Virus record (IMG/VR): IMGVR_UViG_2698536312_000010
Source: a virus
Taxonomy: Duplodnaviria; Heunggongvirae; Uroviricota; Caudoviricetes
Direction: 5' to 3' (one strand)
Length of the DNA: 8,860 nucleotides
Below are positions 1,798 to 8,402 of this stretch, piece by piece. Every line of letters starts with the position of its first letter. The first letter of the stretch is position 1. Below the pieces are notes generated by a model. The model did no database searches and was not told the origin of the DNA. It was given only the letters and a program-made list of their open reading frames with translations. The translations under genes and the position numbers were made by a program.

Positions 1798-1802
1798 CAA
1801 GG

Positions 1803-1830
1803 TTGATTTTTCCGGAATCTGTGGTAAATT
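1803..1830 (+). promoter_or_regulatory. Sigma-70 late promoter, pR'-like (-35 TTGATT, 16-bp spacer, extended -10 TGgTAAATT)
   Basis: TTGATT at 1803-1808 and TAAATT at 1825-1830 with TG at 1822-1823, located 6 bp after the Q stop. Resembles lambda pR' (TTGACT / TAAATT) as I recall it. Confidence 0.5.
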
Positions 1831-1878
1831 CGTCATAACGATGGGCGTTTTATGCCTGACGTTAGAAGAGTTTCTACA

Positions 1879-1902
1879 ACCCGCCGCCGAGCGGGTTTTT
1901 TA
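1879..1902 (+). terminator. Intrinsic terminator, tR'-like, about 50-70 nt downstream of the late promoter
   Basis: Stem CCCGC (1880-1884), loop CGCCGA, stem GCGGG (1891-1895), followed by TTTTTTAT. Confidence 0.55.
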
Positions 1903-2021
1903 TGACTGAAATCGCGTCAGTACAGTAAACGCGCTGGTGGCGGTGAATACCTGTCTTTCAGCTTGCTGGCTTTTTCGACAAGAGTTATTGGTGTGTCACG
2001 TTAACCGGAAAAGGAAAAGAC

Positions 2022-2369: not shown

Positions 2370-3428
2370 ATGCTTAATACTGTAAAAATATCCAGTTGTG
2401 AGTTAATCAACGCCGACTGCCTGGAATTTATCCGGTCGTTACCCGAAAATTCTGTTGACCTGATAGTCACGGACCCGCCGTACTTTAAAGTGAAGCCTGA
2501 GGGCTGGGATAACCAGTGGAAGGGCGACGATGATTACCTGAAGTGGCTGGACCAGTGTCTGGCGCAGTTCTGGCGGGTGCTGAAACCTGCCGGAAGTCTT
2601 TACCTGTTCTGTGGTCATCGCCTGGCATCTGATATCGAAATCATGATGCGTGAACGCTTCAGTGTGCTGAACCATATTATCTGGGCGAAGCCGTCCGGAC
2701 GCTGGAACGGATGCAACAAGGAAAGCCTGCGGGCGTATTTCCCCGCCACAGAGCGCATTCTGTTCGCGGAACATTATCAGGGGCCGTATCGTCCGAAAGA
2801 TGCCGGGTATGCGGCGAAGGGCAGTGCACTGAAACAGCATGTGATGGCCCCGCTGATTTCTTACTTTCGTGATGCGCGAGCTGCCCTGGGGATAACGGCA
2901 AAACAGATTGCAGATGCCACAGGAAAGAAAAACATGGTGTCGCACTGGTTCAGTGCCGGTCAGTGGCAGTTGCCGAATGAAAGCGATTATCTGAAATTAC
3001 AGGCGCTGTTTGCCCGGGTGGCAGAAGAGAAGCATCGGCGTGGTGAACTGGAAAAGCTCCACCACCAGCTGGTGGATACGTATACCTCACTGAACCGGCA
3101 GTATGCGGAGCTGCTGAGTGAATATAAACATCTGCGGCGGTATTTTGGCGTGACGGTGCAGGTGCCGTATACCGATGTGTGGACGCATAAACCGGTGCAG
3201 TTCTATCCCGGGAAACATCCGTGCGAAAAACCGGCAGAAATGCTGCAGCAGATAATCAGCGCTAGCAGTCGTCCGGGTGACCTGATTGCAGATTTTTTCA
3301 TGGGGTTGGGTTCGACAGTGAAAGCGGCACTGGCGCTCGGGCGTCGTGCAATTGGCGTTGAGCTGGAGACTGAACGTTTTGAGCAGACGGTTCGGGAAGT
3401 ACAGGATTTAGTCAGCCAGAACGGATGA
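2370..3428 (+). CDS. Beta-class DNA methyltransferase (N6-adenine or N4-cytosine), orphan
   Basis: 352 aa with DPPY (motif IV) near the N-terminus in VTDPPYF and an FxGxG AdoMet-binding motif (DFFMGLGST) near the C-terminus; this order is diagnostic of beta-class amino-methyltransferases. No restriction-enzyme partner in the window. Confidence 0.9.
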   Translation: MLNTVKISSCELINADCLEFIRSLPENSVDLIVTDPPYFKVKPEGWDNQWKGDDDYLKWLDQCLAQFWRVLKPAGSLYLFCGHRLASDIEIMMRERFSVLNHIIWAKPSGRWNGCNKESLRAYFPATERILFAEHYQGPYRPKDAGYAAKGSALKQHVMAPLISYFRDARAALGITAKQIADATGKKNMVSHWFSAGQWQLPNESDYLKLQALFARVAEEKHRRGELEKLHHQLVDTYTSLNRQYAELLSEYKHLRRYFGVTVQVPYTDVWTHKPVQFYPGKHPCEKPAEMLQQIISASSRPGDLIADFFMGLGSTVKAALALGRRAIGVELETERFEQTVREVQDLVSQNG

Positions 3429-4389: not shown

Positions 4390-4611
4390 CACAATTCAGG
4401 CGGTTGACTGTTGTCTGGTTTGCGGGGAGTTTGTTAAAAGAAACTGGCATGGTGAATCCCCCTGTGCGGAGGGGCAATCAGCGAGTAGGTATATGGGATA
4501 ATCGCGGATTCAGGTGCTGGTACTGAATTCACCGGGAGGCACCCGGCACCATGCAATGGCACATAGCGCCACTCTCCAGCCCCTCTCCGGAGGGGCTGTT
4601 TATATTGATTT
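4390..4611 (+). repeat. Repeat family copy 1: candidate small-RNA gene with 5' hairpin and intrinsic terminator
   Basis: The stretch from GTTTGTTAAAAG (4429) to the terminator is near-identical to copy 2 and shares conserved blocks with copy 3. 5' hairpin CCCCT-GTGCGG-AGGGG at 4458-4473. Terminator stem AGCCCCTC (4577-4584), loop TCCG, stem GAGGGGCT (4589-4596), then GTTTATATTGATTTT. Confidence 0.8.
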
Positions 4612-4632: not shown

Positions 4633-4968
4633 TTATGGACTTTGTTGTTTTAGTCCATAAGGACATATTTGCAGAGTGCAACGGTTATTAAAGCATTCAT
4701 TCAATACGTTATCTGTATTTGTAGGGCATTCCTGGCTGTTTTTGATTAAATTCCAGAATGTTTTATTGAATGGTACTACGTTGTAAATGGTTACAGGTAG
4801 CACTTTGTTATTGAGCATGATGCCTGTGTGAGTCAGTGTAAATATACTTTCAGGAGGTAAGAAAGCATCCGATTGATACCAGATTATTAATTTTATTTTA
4901 CTCCATATGACTGAAAAAGATATTCCGCATGATGGCTGGATAACTGTATCAATCACAATCCACTTCAT
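4633..4968 (-). CDS. Hypothetical cysteine-rich protein (111 aa) in AT-rich DNA, opposite strand to the phage late genes
   Basis: Only long ORF in this interval. Good Shine-Dalgarno on the minus strand (AAGGA, 6-nt spacer, ATG at 4968-4966). AT-rich upstream region with a TATACT -10-like hexamer (plus coordinates 5009-5014). C-terminal cluster of four cysteines ([26 protein letters not shown]). A 10-bp perfect stem-loop (4631-4662) spans the stop codon. No family recognised. Confidence 0.45.
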
Positions 4969-5236: not shown

Positions 5237-5248
5237 TNNNNNNNNNNN
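5237..5248. other. Scaffold gap (12 N) immediately 5' of repeat copy 2
   Basis: Literal N-run; the sequence after it begins exactly at a conserved repeat block. Confidence 1.
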
Positions 5249-5421
5249 GTTTGTTAAAAGAAACTGGCATGGTGAATCCCCCTGTGCGGAGGGGCAATCA
5301 GCGAGTAGGTATATGGGATAATCGCGGATTCAGGTGCTGGTACTGAATTCACCGGGAGGCACCCGGCATCATGCAATGGCACATAGCGCCACTCTCCAGC
5401 CCTCTCCGGAGGGGCTTTTCT
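5249..5421 (+). repeat. Repeat family copy 2 (5' end hidden by the gap); near-identical to copy 1
   Basis: 5249-5415 matches 4429-4596 with two differences (caccatg to catcatg, and one C missing in the terminator stem). Sequence downstream of the terminator is unrelated to that after copy 1. Confidence 0.8.
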
Positions 5422-5475
5422 GTGCCGGATACATCACAGTTTCTGGAACCTTAGGTACTACAGTATCAGTCAGGG

Positions 5476-5484
5476 TGCTATATT
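5476..5484 (+). promoter_or_regulatory. Candidate extended -10 promoter (TGcTATATT) for a short independent transcript ending at the 5610-5637 terminator
   Basis: TG at 5476-5477 and TATATT at 5479-5484; no clear -35. The terminator lies about 120-150 nt downstream. Confidence 0.35.
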
Positions 5485-5609
5485 TTCAGATGTGATGAAA
5501 GCCTGTCAGCAGGCAGGGCGTATCGGAAATGACCCAGTAGAGAAAACGTTGACTCAGATACCGGTGCTGAGTTACCGGGAAACCGGCATCACATGACCGC
5601 TATCCTTCC

Positions 5610-5637
5610 AGGCCCATCCGCTCCGGTGGGCCTTTTT
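5610..5637 (+). terminator. Intrinsic terminator (GC-rich hairpin plus T5)
   Basis: Stem GGCCCA (5611-5616), loop TCCGCTCCGG, stem TGGGCC (5627-5632), then TTTTT (5633-5637). Confidence 0.5.
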
Positions 5638-5676
5638 ACTGCAGAAAACAGGTTCCCCGTTAAATGCTATGTTGCT

Positions 5677-5908
5677 CACAATTCAGTAAGTTGACAGTTG
5701 CCTGTCAGACTGGGCATTTGTTAAAAAAATTTCGCATGGTGAATCCCCCTGAGCGGAGGGGCGACTGGTGACGGTATAATCTCTGATTATCAAAACGAGA
5801 ATGACGCGGGTTTAGTGGCACCGGGCTGAACTCACCGGGAGGCACCCGGCACCATGTGCATGATGATACAGATACGCGGCTTTAGCCCCTCTCCGGAGGG
5901 GTTTTCTT
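5677..5908 (+). repeat. Repeat family copy 3: diverged copy with the same conserved ends and a different core
   Basis: Shares CACAATTCAG, GTTGAC-GTTG-CTG, TTTGTTAAAA, GCATGGTGAATCCCCCTG-GCGGAGGGGC, TCACCGGGAGGCACCCGGCACCATG and the terminator hairpin (CCCCTC-TCCG-GAGGGG, 5886-5901, then TTTTCTT) with copy 1. The intervening core sequences are unrelated. Confidence 0.75.
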
Positions 5909-5913
5909 GTGGG

Positions 5914-5943
5914 CAAAAAAAGCCCGCGCTGGGAGACGCGGGC
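5914..5943 (-). terminator. Possible minus-strand intrinsic terminator facing the N gap
   Basis: Hairpin GCCCGCG-CTGGGAGA-CGCGGGC (5922-5943) preceded on the plus strand by A7 (5914-5920), which is a U-run on the minus-strand transcript. Confidence 0.35.
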
Positions 5944-5973
5944 GGCAAGGAATAAACAATAAAACGTGAAGTA

Positions 5974-6164
5974 NNNNNNNNNNNNNNNNNNNNNNNNNNN
6001 NNNNNNNNNNNNNNNNNNNNNNNNNNNNNNNNNNNNNNNNNNNNNNNNNNNNNNNNNNNNNNNNNNNNNNNNNNNNNNNNNNNNNNNNNNNNNNNNNNNN
6101 NNNNNNNNNNNNNNNNNNNNNNNNNNNNNNNNNNNNNNNNNNNNNNNNNNNNNNNNNNNNNNNN
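5974..6164. other. Scaffold gap (191 N) immediately upstream of the nanS-p start
   Basis: Literal N-run. Six-frame ORFs crossing it are artefacts. Confidence 1.
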
Positions 6165-6182: not shown

Positions 6183-8036
6183 ATGGCATTTAAACACTAT
6201 GACGTGGTCAGGGCGGCATCGCCGTCAGACCTTGCGAAACGACTGACACAAAAACTGAAGGAGGGCTGGCAGCCGTTTGGTAGTCCGGTGGCCATAACCC
6301 CTTATACCCTGATGCAGGCGATTGCAGCAGAAGGTGATGTGGTCGTCAGTGGTGCAACTGAGCCGGAGTGGTACTACGTCATCGTACTGGCCGGGCAATC
6401 CAATGCCATGGCTTACGGTGAAGGTCTTCCGCTTCCGGATTCATACGATGCGCCCCATCCGCGCATTAAGCAACTGGCCCGTCGTAACACAGTGACTCCC
6501 GGTGGTGAAGTATGCGTATTTAACGACATCATTCCTGCTGACCATTGTCTGCATGATGTTCAGGATATGAGTACGATTAACCATCCCCGGGCTGACCTGA
6601 GCAAAGGGCAGTACGGCTGTGTCGGACAGGGCTTACATATTGCCAAAAAACTGCTTCCGTATATCCCTAATAATGCGGGGATCCTGCTGGTACCATGCTG
6701 TCGTGGTGGTTCGGCATTCACCCAGGGCACGGAGGGGACATTCAGCGAGTCCACGGGGGCCAGTCAGGATTCGGCTCGCTGGGGAGTGGGTAAGCCGTTA
6801 TATCAGGATCTGCTTTTCCGCACGAAGGCAGCATTGCAGAAAAACCCGAAAAACGTTTTGCTGGCGATATGCTGGATGCAGGGGGAATTCGATATGACGA
6901 ATGCCAGTTACGCCCAGCAGCCAGCAGCATTTCTTGCAATGGTACAGCAGTTCCGTGCTGACCTTGCCGGGCTGGCGGCGCAGTGTCACGGTGGAAGTCC
7001 GGCATCAGTCCCCTGGATTTGTGGCGACACGACATACGCGTGGAAACAAGAACACGGTACGCAATATGAAGTGGTATATGGTGCATATAAAGGTAAAGAA
7101 TCCCAGCAGATTTATTTTGTTCCCTTTATGACCGATGGTAGCGGAGTTAATACACCGACAAACAACCCGTCAGAAGATCCTGATATTGCCGGGTCTGGTT
7201 ATTACGGTTCGGCATCCCGAACGAACAAAAACTGGGTATCATCAAATCGCCCGACGCATTTCAGCTCATGGGCGCGTCGTGGCATTATTCCCGATCGTAT
7301 GGCAACTGCTATTCTGAACGTAGCCGGTCGCACCTTAGCCTTCATTAGTGGTAAGGCACCGGAAATCAAACCCTCGCCCGGCGGCGACACGCCATCGGGG
7401 CCGTCTGAAGATGCATCCATACGCACAATCTCCCTGTTGCCGACAGCCGGAGACGCTGCTGCGCAGGGCTGGAGCATTAAGAATGGCGGAGTTCAGTTGT
7501 CAGATGGTGTATTTAAGATCACCAAGCAGAGCAATAAAGCCTGGTCCCTGACGCGCCCGGTGGATGACGCAGTCTCCCTGCTGACACGGGGTGGCAGACT
7601 GAGCTGTAAGTTTCGACTGTCAGGCGCACTGACCACCAACCAGTTCGGTCTGGGAATTTATCTGTATACCGATGTAGCGTTACCTGACGTCGTGGCGATG
7701 ACCGGGACTGGTAACCCGTTCCTGATGTCGTTCTTCACCCAGACCACAGACGGCAAACTGAATCTGATGCATCACAAGAAAGCAGGAAACACAAAGTTGG
7801 GCGAGTTCGGGAATTACAGTAACGACTGGCTGACGCTGGAGCTGGTGTTCACCGCCGGCAGTGCCACGGTTACTCCGAAACTGAATGGAGTGGCTGGCCC
7901 GGCATTCCAGGTCATAAAAGACAGTCTGACACTGGGGCTGAATGCGCTGACGCTGACGGATATTACCAAAAATGCAGCGTATGGCGTTGAGATAGAAAGT
8001 CTGGTGCTGGAGATAAATGCACCGGCATCATCATAA
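6183..8036 (+). CDS. nanS-p: Prophage sialate O-acetylesterase, NanS-p type (DUF1737 N-terminus plus SASA/SGNH esterase domain)
   Basis: 617 aa. The N-terminus MAFKHYDVVRAASPSDLAKRLTQKLKEGWQPFGSP matches the DUF1737-type start and VLAGQSNAMAYG carries the GQSN catalytic-serine motif of SASA esterases, both from memory. GGGAGGA sits upstream of the ATG. Position between the toxin-cargo slot and holin S is the canonical one in 933W-like phages. In-frame upstream sequence is open into the gap, so the true start could lie within it. Confidence 0.88.
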   Translation: MAFKHYDVVRAASPSDLAKRLTQKLKEGWQPFGSPVAITPYTLMQAIAAEGDVVVSGATEPEWYYVIVLAGQSNAMAYGEGLPLPDSYDAPHPRIKQLARRNTVTPGGEVCVFNDIIPADHCLHDVQDMSTINHPRADLSKGQYGCVGQGLHIAKKLLPYIPNNAGILLVPCCRGGSAFTQGTEGTFSESTGASQDSARWGVGKPLYQDLLFRTKAALQKNPKNVLLAICWMQGEFDMTNASYAQQPAAFLAMVQQFRADLAGLAAQCHGGSPASVPWICGDTTYAWKQEHGTQYEVVYGAYKGKESQQIYFVPFMTDGSGVNTPTNNPSEDPDIAGSGYYGSASRTNKNWVSSNRPTHFSSWARRGIIPDRMATAILNVAGRTLAFISGKAPEIKPSPGGDTPSGPSEDASIRTISLLPTAGDAAAQGWSIKNGGVQLSDGVFKITKQSNKAWSLTRPVDDAVSLLTRGGRLSCKFRLSGALTTNQFGLGIYLYTDVALPDVVAMTGTGNPFLMSFFTQTTDGKLNLMHHKKAGNTKLGEFGNYSNDWLTLELVFTAGSATVTPKLNGVAGPAFQVIKDSLTLGLNALTLTDITKNAAYGVEIESLVLEINAPASS

Positions 8037-8186: not shown

Positions 8187-8402
8187 ATGTACCAGATGGA
8201 AAAAATCACAACAGGTGTGTCATACACCACGTCAGCGGTGGGAACGGGCTACTGGTTCCTGCAGTTGCTGGACAGGGTTTCCCCGTCTCAGTGGGCGGCA
8301 ATAGGCGTGCTGGGGAGTCTGCTGTTTGGGCTGCTGACATATCTGACTAACCTGTATTTCAAAATCAGAGAGGACCGTCGTAAGGCTGCACGGGGAGAGT
8401 AA
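8187..8402 (+). CDS. S: Class II holin (pinholin), phage 21 S21-like, with dual-start motif
   Basis: Product [71 protein letters not shown] resembles S21 as I recall it. Two Met codons (8187 and 8196) give the Met1/Met4 antiholin/holin arrangement. GGGAGA lies 6 nt upstream. The six-frame ORF starting at 8109 is an upstream extension that runs through the terminator. Confidence 0.85.

Follow-up and report, generated by a model that had tools for sequence, protein, structure and literature searches.

The question raised by this locus is what a short segment (5476-5637, plus strand), lying between two copies of the STnc100 repeat in a prophage, encodes, and whether it belongs with those repeats or stands apart from them. 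The segment was read in a window of 8,860 nt, which is the whole stretch of DNA that was analysed. From the letters by themselves it had been taken for a self-contained promoter-to-terminator unit that yields either a small RNA or a leaderless micropeptide, and that is distinct from the surrounding repeat family.

The unit and its surroundings in the prophage late region

The window represents the late region of an Escherichia lambdoid prophage. Its open reading frames include RusA (411-785), the Q antiterminator (1114-1797), a DNA methylase (2370-3428), a SASA/nanS-p-type esterase (6183-8036) and a P21-type holin (8187-8402), and it also encodes a DUF1327 protein, tRNA-Met and tRNA-Arg. The unit is encoded on the late-gene strand, after Q and before the lysis genes, and a matching context was observed in ATCC 11775, strain 4/2-1 and phage vB_EcoS-640R1. 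Three canonical STnc100 copies are recognised by Rfam on the plus strand of the window: copy 1 at 4418-4607 (132.4 bits), copy 2, the upstream neighbour of the unit, at 5249-5427, or 5238-5427 with the N-run at 5238-5248 included (120 bits), and copy 3, the downstream neighbour, at 5705-5914 (161 bits).

Runs of N are present at 1097-1100, 5238-5248 and 5974-6164. Copy 2 starts right after the second of these, and the first is flanked by near-duplicate sequences (about 900-1096 versus 1101-1290). The runs look like scaffold joins through repeats, and the order of copy 1 and iraM relative to the array of copy 2, the unit and copy 3 may therefore be unreliable; the array itself was confirmed in complete genomes. 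The iraM reading frame (4633-4968, minus strand) is 98% identical to an anti-adapter IraM annotated in RefSeq, and it directly follows an STnc100 copy, as it also does in strain 4/2-1 and phage vB_EcoS-640R1. Just downstream of copy 3, a convergent small-RNA-like unit was observed on the minus strand (5915-5968), whose strong terminator has its stem at 5943-5922, followed by T7. This unit agrees at 49 of 54 positions with the EPEC RIL-seq candidate 'E2348C_1409.E2348C_1408.IGR' (PMC8550237 Fig. S5), and its 5' end may be hidden by the N-run at 5974-6164.

The elements that the sequence-only reading had listed for the unit are all present where it had placed them. The segment begins with an extended -10, TGcTATATT (TGCTATATT, 5476-5484, plus strand), for which no usable or recognisable -35 was found. 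It ends with a Rho-independent terminator (5610-5637) that has its stem at 5610-5617/5626-5633 followed by U5; the core of this stem is GGCCCA (5611-5616)/TGGGCC (5627-5632), and the T-run occupies 5633-5637. The hairpin at 5610-5633 was also picked up independently by a terminator scan (9 pairs, 6 of them G-C, then TTTTT), which counted 12 terminator-like sites in the region around the unit compared to 2.1 expected. CCGG occurs at both 5561-5564 and 5575-5578, and a 33-codon open reading frame runs from the ATG at 5495 to the TGA at 5594-5596, with no purine-rich Shine-Dalgarno sequence in front of the ATG. The extended -10 is not significant as a motif alone, as TGNTATAWT occurs once in the window versus 0.55 expected, and at least once in 82 of 200 shuffles. 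The unit was judged real because of its comparative conservation and not because of this motif. A promoter-like site on the minus strand (5509-5482) was rejected as not real after its -35 was found to be destroyed in the second of the two haplotypes described below (haplotype B).

Homology to STnc100 and PasD and the shared fold

The Rfam model of STnc100 (RF02076) matches 5466-5639 over its full length (model positions 1-206 of 206) with 30.1 bits, which corresponds to an E value of 1.5e-3 for the window and 4.7e-5 in a local search. This score is below the RF02076 gathering threshold of 47 bits, while the flanking copies score 120-161 bits. To avoid reliance on a single marginal Rfam score, a covariance model (R1) was built from seven canonical STnc100 copies only, drawn from the window, ATCC 11775 and strain 4/2-1 with the candidate left out, and searches were performed with filters off. 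With R1, the unit scored 44.5 bits in the haplotype of the window (haplotype A; E of about 8e-11) and 48.3 bits in haplotype B. These values are about level with those of the validated EPEC small RNAs PasD2 (42.3 bits) and PasD1 (41.1 bits), which themselves score below the Rfam threshold (41.4 and 37.7 bits for the pair). By primary sequence the relationship is distant. BLAST searches of phages and E. coli genomes, in near as well as distant mode, returned only the two haplotypes of the unit and no bridge to STnc100 or PasD, and PasD has already been identified as a structural homologue of STnc100 that BLAST does not detect (bioRxiv 10.64898/2026.05.13.724894). When the four units of the window were aligned with MAFFT, helices P1, P4 and P5 came into register at a mean column identity of only 65%. 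A comparison of repeats confined to the window would not have revealed the kinship.

Weaker R1 hits of 13-21 bits were obtained on PR'-tR' units downstream of Q (window 1818-1912; locus L004, 5214-5309; locus L003, 3833-3916). These cover only the -10 and the terminator, and descent of the unit from a PR' leader was rejected. The corresponding unit of the window (1800-1905, plus strand) directly follows Q and consists of a PR'-like promoter (TTGATT...TAAATT), a short transcript and a strong terminator (CCCGCCGCCGAGCGGGTTTTTT). It occupies the position of a lambda 6S/StxS-type RNA, and its weak match to the STnc100 model likewise comprises the -10 and terminator only. A further covariance model (R2), trained on all three subfamilies, found additional low-scoring members of the superfamily (22-35 bits) at L130:5430-5621, from E. 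ruysiae, and on the minus strand at L167:1523-1642. Both keep GGGAGGCACCC and differ in the sequences of P1 and P2, and other diverged subfamilies therefore exist below the annotation thresholds.

The unit shows the family order of a closing helix P1, P2, P3, P4, P5, a linker and an intrinsic terminator, and the fold of minimum free energy of the single sequence (-53.2 kcal/mol, z = -2.15) agrees with this architecture. The 5' strand of P1 (AUGUGAUG, 5490-5497) pairs with 5587-5594 (CAUCACAU). Within this closing helix, P2 is the hairpin CCUGUC-AGCA-GGCAGG (5502-5517, pairs 5502-5507/5512-5517), and it is followed by the variable and mostly single-stranded P3 (5518-5549), which is unpaired in the minimum free energy and centroid folds and contains a purine-rich stretch (AGUAGAGAAAACG, 5536-5548) with the same letters in both haplotypes. 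Within P3, the sequence at 5519-5548 is unique to the unit. P4 is the hairpin GACUCAG...CUGAGUU (5551-5573, pairs 5551-5557/5567-5573), and P5 is CCGG-GAAA-CCGG (5575-5586, pairs 5575-5578/5583-5586), which aligns with the CCGGGAGGCACCCGG hairpin of the family. A C/U-rich linker of 15 nt (GACCGCUAUCCUUCC, 5595-5609), unpaired in the folds, separates P1 from the terminator. The internal hairpin CCGG-N10-CCGG, which had been proposed from the sequence, is not the pairing that the family supports: 5575-5578 pairs with 5583-5586 in P5, and 5561-5564 is located within the loop of P4.

In an alignment of 12 sequences from the three subfamilies, which was fitted to the covariance model, 98.3% of the cells are paired and 16 of the 37 pairs have changed on both sides. 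These include four of the eight pairs of P1 and four of the eight pairs of P4, the latter with 100% of its cells paired. When the pairing partners were slid by 1-3 columns as a control, only 0-2 pairs with changes on both sides were left, and none of 500 shuffles reached the observed values. Because this alignment is model-fitted, the comparison was repeated independently on 15 members, drawn from Escherichia, Phytobacter, Kosakonia and Enterobacter and aligned with MAFFT by sequence alone. RNAalifold found P1, P2, P5 and the terminator in this alignment too, and the candidate was in register.

Within the unit's own subfamily, where covariation is thin as there are two haplotypes only, the RNAs of A and B are separated by 11 substitutions and one 4-nt indel. 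Six base pairs are affected, and each of them is still a standard pair. In haplotype B, P2 reads UCUGCC-GGAA-GGCGGA; its three altered pairs are all still paired, one of them through a double change from C-G to U-A. In the terminator, haplotype B has the 4-nt deletion and two substitutions, and yet the stem forms again.

The shared fold and the covariance-model matches refute the view that sets the unit apart from the repeat family, and identify it as a diverged paralogue of the STnc100 repeats that flank it. Of the two products that had been suggested, the small RNA is the most likely. Our reading is that 5476-5637 is probably a strongly diverged and so far unannotated STnc100/PasD paralogue, a complete small-RNA gene that would be transcribed independently and whose product would be an Hfq-type base-pairing RNA with a seed of its own. 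This kind of prophage RNA is already known, and the subfamily itself appears to be undescribed. No RefSeq annotation was present under the unit among the matches listed, a full-text literature search with sequence strings from the unit returned no paper, and a literature search for a comparable ExPEC or prophage small RNA returned only HnrS, which is a different RNA of 66 nt.

Conservation of the unit and competing readings

Of 5,426 complete E. coli genomes, 673 (approximately 12%) carry the unit, which occurs in two haplotypes. Haplotype A accounts for 346 records at 99% identity or above, with the window identical, and haplotype B for 327 records at about 91%. ATCC 11775 has haplotype A (NZ_CP033092.2, around 2714157-2714327, minus strand), and NCTC86 has haplotype B. 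The unit was also found in E. albertii, in five induced-phage records and in 116 prophage contigs of IMG/VR, and the carriers among the matches listed are largely human extraintestinal and faecal isolates with a few STEC. Canonical STnc100 lies on both sides in 97 of the 116 IMG/VR contigs, at a fixed distance of about 137-140 nt upstream and 241-246 nt downstream, and ATCC 11775 and strain 4/2-1 carry the same array of STnc100, unit and STnc100 between Q/tRNA and holin. When the two array haplotypes are compared, identity over the unit, from the -10 to the T-run, is 91%, whereas the STnc100 copies on either side reach 74% and 68% and the spacers 65% and 77%. The unit is the best-conserved segment of its array. 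This high conservation could stem from recent horizontal spread instead of selection. The promoter-to-terminator unit that had been proposed is thus borne out as a conserved entity, and it is conserved as a unit in related prophages, the lack of which had been named beforehand as part of what would refute it.

Among 117 IMG/VR copies of the unit (loci among L005-L122), there are five in which unrelated sequence (GAGGTGTACTGGCAATAGCGG...) takes over after the position that corresponds to 5603, and the terminator is gone. The break may be a mobile-element insertion or a recombination breakpoint.

These broken copies count in favour of a reading in which the unit is a decaying and functionless STnc100 duplicate that owes its hairpins to descent, perhaps transcribed only as read-through from copy 2 or PR'. 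The same reading could draw on the score below the Rfam threshold, on the missing -35 and on the loss of GAAUCCCCC (P2) and GGGAGGCACCC (P5), two motifs that hardly vary among canonical members of different genera. The conservation pattern disfavours it, however, as the unit is the most conserved part of the array (91% versus 65-77%), its substitutions preserve every affected pair, both haplotypes have an intact -10 and terminator, and about 12% of complete E. coli genomes, as well as E. albertii, have kept it. We therefore consider decay to be unlikely.

The position of the unit allows another reading, in which it acts in cis on the late transcript, either as part of a terminator series that insulates the lysis genes in the lysogen or as an element for processing or stability. 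On the late-operon strand, four terminators follow one another between Q/PR' and holin, and the unit is part of this row; its location is constant in all loci examined. A terminator alone would nevertheless leave unexplained the conserved promoter element, the invariant single-stranded segments and the conserved multi-hairpin domain of 100 nt, which compensatory changes have preserved, and the relatives of the unit accumulate as discrete Hfq-associated RNAs. A cis-acting role in place of a small RNA is thus quite improbable, but the two roles do not exclude each other.

The remaining reading concerns the 33-codon open reading frame (5495-5596), which was judged non-coding. A dual-function RNA, or an mRNA that is leaderless or nearly so, for the 33-aa peptide MKACQQAGRIGNDPVEKTLTQIPVLSYRETGIT would fit the observations that the frame is open in both haplotypes, that its ATG is 4-6 nt from the predicted start, and that some EDL933 STnc100 copies have ribosome footprints with ribosomal coverage values of up to 3.2 (PMC5331693). 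The codon changes between the haplotypes, which with two haplotypes form a small and only indicative sample, are 5 non-synonymous and 2 synonymous, and they fall mostly in codons 3-8, where hairpin P2 is conserved. The AUG (5495-5497) is paired with 5587-5589 in P1, the UGA starts at the last base of the 3' strand of P1, and no Shine-Dalgarno sequence precedes the frame. An AUG frame at the same place extends for 8 codons in PasD2, 11 in copy 3 and 25 in copy 1. Pfam has no match to the peptide, and no gene is called at the site among the RefSeq genomes listed. Induced-phage records do contain automatic 'hypothetical protein' calls that overlap the unit, but these use other frames or strands and were disregarded. 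From the substitution pattern, the paired AUG, the variable length and the missing Pfam match, the micropeptide that had been offered as the second product is very unlikely, and a dual-function RNA that also gives the peptide is a small residual possibility.

Predicted transcript and relation to known prophage RNAs

The small-RNA reading places a promoter directly upstream of P1. The extended -10 is the same in both haplotypes although the 30 nt upstream have diverged, and in the Rfam and R1 alignments TGCTATATT aligns with the family TGTTAAAA(A) box just upstream of P1, a box that is itself shaped like an extended -10. The start of PasD2, as estimated from RNA-seq coverage in EPEC (NC_011601:741157; PMC8550237 Table S6), is the first base of P1. 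By homology to this estimated start, transcription of the unit is predicted to begin at A5490 ± 2 nt, which is 6-8 nt past the -10. The sequence-only guess of a start around 5491 agrees with this position, as it falls on the first base of the closing helix.

In a lysogen, sigma-70 RNA polymerase would initiate at about 5490-5492 from the extended -10 promoter and would stop at the intrinsic terminator, giving an RNA of approximately 148 nt (5490-5637, plus strand) that ends in the U-run. This RNA would fold into a multi-hairpin domain with P2, P4 and P5 closed by P1, followed by the 15-nt C/U linker and the terminator hairpin with its U-tail. By analogy with PasD1/PasD2 and EcOnc27/sRNA103, it would be bound by Hfq, and its linker, the purine-rich part of P3, or both would base-pair in trans with mRNAs of the host or the prophage. 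The linker GACCGCUAUCCUUCC is the candidate seed: it is a single-stranded C/U tract resembling an anti-Shine-Dalgarno sequence, it has the same letters in both haplotypes, and it occupies the position of the PasD seed UGUGAG. The P3 stretch at 5536-5548 could possibly serve as an Hfq distal-face site or as a seed. As the proposed seed is unlike those of the neighbours, the target set should differ as well. Within the window, the longest Watson-Crick complementarity to the RNA in a search for matches of at least 9 nt was 10 nt, between P2 and the esterase coding region; this is at chance level, and no cis target is therefore proposed. In the lytic cycle, polymerase that has been modified by Q and arrives from PR' would pass through the entire array and override the terminators.

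Several prophage RNAs resemble the unit in setting. StxS (PR'/tR'), HnrS, Esr41, AgvB/AsxR and PasA/PasC are short Hfq-associated RNAs with intrinsic terminators among phage late genes, which are expressed in lysogens and act on host mRNAs or small RNAs. They are unrelated to the unit in sequence and fold, and the Rfam models of AgvB, AsxR and Esr41 did not match it.

Close relatives are the canonical STnc100 RNAs (RF02076; EcOnc27/sRNA103 in EHEC). Eleven STnc100 copies are expressed in EDL933, one of which was verified by Northern blot (PMC5331693), the promoters of STnc100 in Salmonella are bound by RpoD (PMC10794520), and the copy adjacent to stx2 corresponds to the Hfq-binding EcOnc27/sRNA103, whose variants are statistically linked to the risk of HUS (PMC12711010). 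STnc100 and the unit share a niche in the late lambdoid region, with Q, tRNAs or stx on the upstream side and the lysis genes on the downstream side, the strand, a similar size, an own -10 directly upstream of P1 and a common order of the fold. They differ in sequence: P1 is AUGUGAUG/CAUCACAU in the unit and GCAUGGUG/CACCAUGC in canonical STnc100, and P2 is CCUGUC/GGCAGG versus CCCCU/AGGGG. In P5 the unit has a GAAA tetraloop where STnc100 has the near-invariant GGGAGGCACCC, so that the stem is kept and the motif is lost. The RNA of the unit is also shorter by about 30-40 nt, and its linker differs.

In canonical STnc100, GGUGAAUCCCCC...GGGG and CACCGGGAGGCACCCGGCACCA are almost unchanged from Escherichia to Phytobacter, Kosakonia and Enterobacter (loci L124, L125, L157, L160, L161, L166, L171 and L172), while P3, P4 and the linker vary. 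Conservation of these motifs, loops included, exceeds what a base-pairing scaffold needs, and this suggests a specific partner or a tertiary contact. Both near-invariant motifs, GGUGAAUCCCCC at P1/P2 and CACCGGGAGGCACCCGGCACCA at P5/P1, are absent in the unit, which has GAUGAAAGCCUG and UACCGGGAAACCGGCAUCA in their place. With GAAUCCCCC and GGGAGGCACCC lost, whatever these motifs bind may no longer be bound by the unit. One interpretation, which we regard as speculative and rather unlikely, is that the middle gene of the array is a neofunctionalised paralogue that has kept the scaffold, discarded GAAUCCCCC and GGGAGGCACCC, and gained a GNRA tetraloop in P5 and a new C/U-rich seed. If GAAUCCCCC and GGGAGGCACCC are the binding site for a partner of STnc100, the RNA of the unit would act by a mechanism unlike that of its neighbours, and might then be a pure Hfq base-pairing regulator or a sponge. 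If this interpretation were true, the array would be a natural experiment in the diversification of small RNAs through tandem duplication. Since the unit keeps the fold without the invariant motifs or the seed, it offers a natural contrast for studying the role of the motifs and the gain of targets by tandem paralogues.

In pathogenic E. coli, the RNAs of the STnc100/PasD family are abundant, associated with Hfq and encoded by prophages in multiple copies. The unit shows that the size and diversity of this family exceed what annotation at the Rfam threshold reveals. The third subfamily described here is invisible to BLAST, scores below the gathering threshold and occurs in roughly 12% of complete E. 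coli genomes, for the most part not in the EHEC and EPEC strains in which the family has been studied. Studies of copy number or association that count STnc100 by Rfam or BLAST overlook it.

PasD1 and PasD2 of EPEC E2348/69, homologues of EcOnc13, are another close parallel. They are abundant RNAs that were detected by Northern blot and turned up in Hfq RIL-seq chimeras (PMC8550237), they are 172-173 nt in length, similar to the unit, and they too lie just upstream of a SASA esterase or holin. Beyond the fold, PasD and the unit have no sequence similarity. PasD retains recognisable GAAUCCUCC and GGGAGGC motifs, both of which the unit has lost, and the PasD seed UGUGAG, which lies in the linker before the terminator (PMC8550237 Fig. 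S5), is absent from 5490-5637, where the proposed seed of the unit is placed alike. The two also differ in their carriers, as PasD is enriched in EPEC and EHEC, whereas the listed carriers of the unit are largely extraintestinal and faecal isolates with a few STEC.
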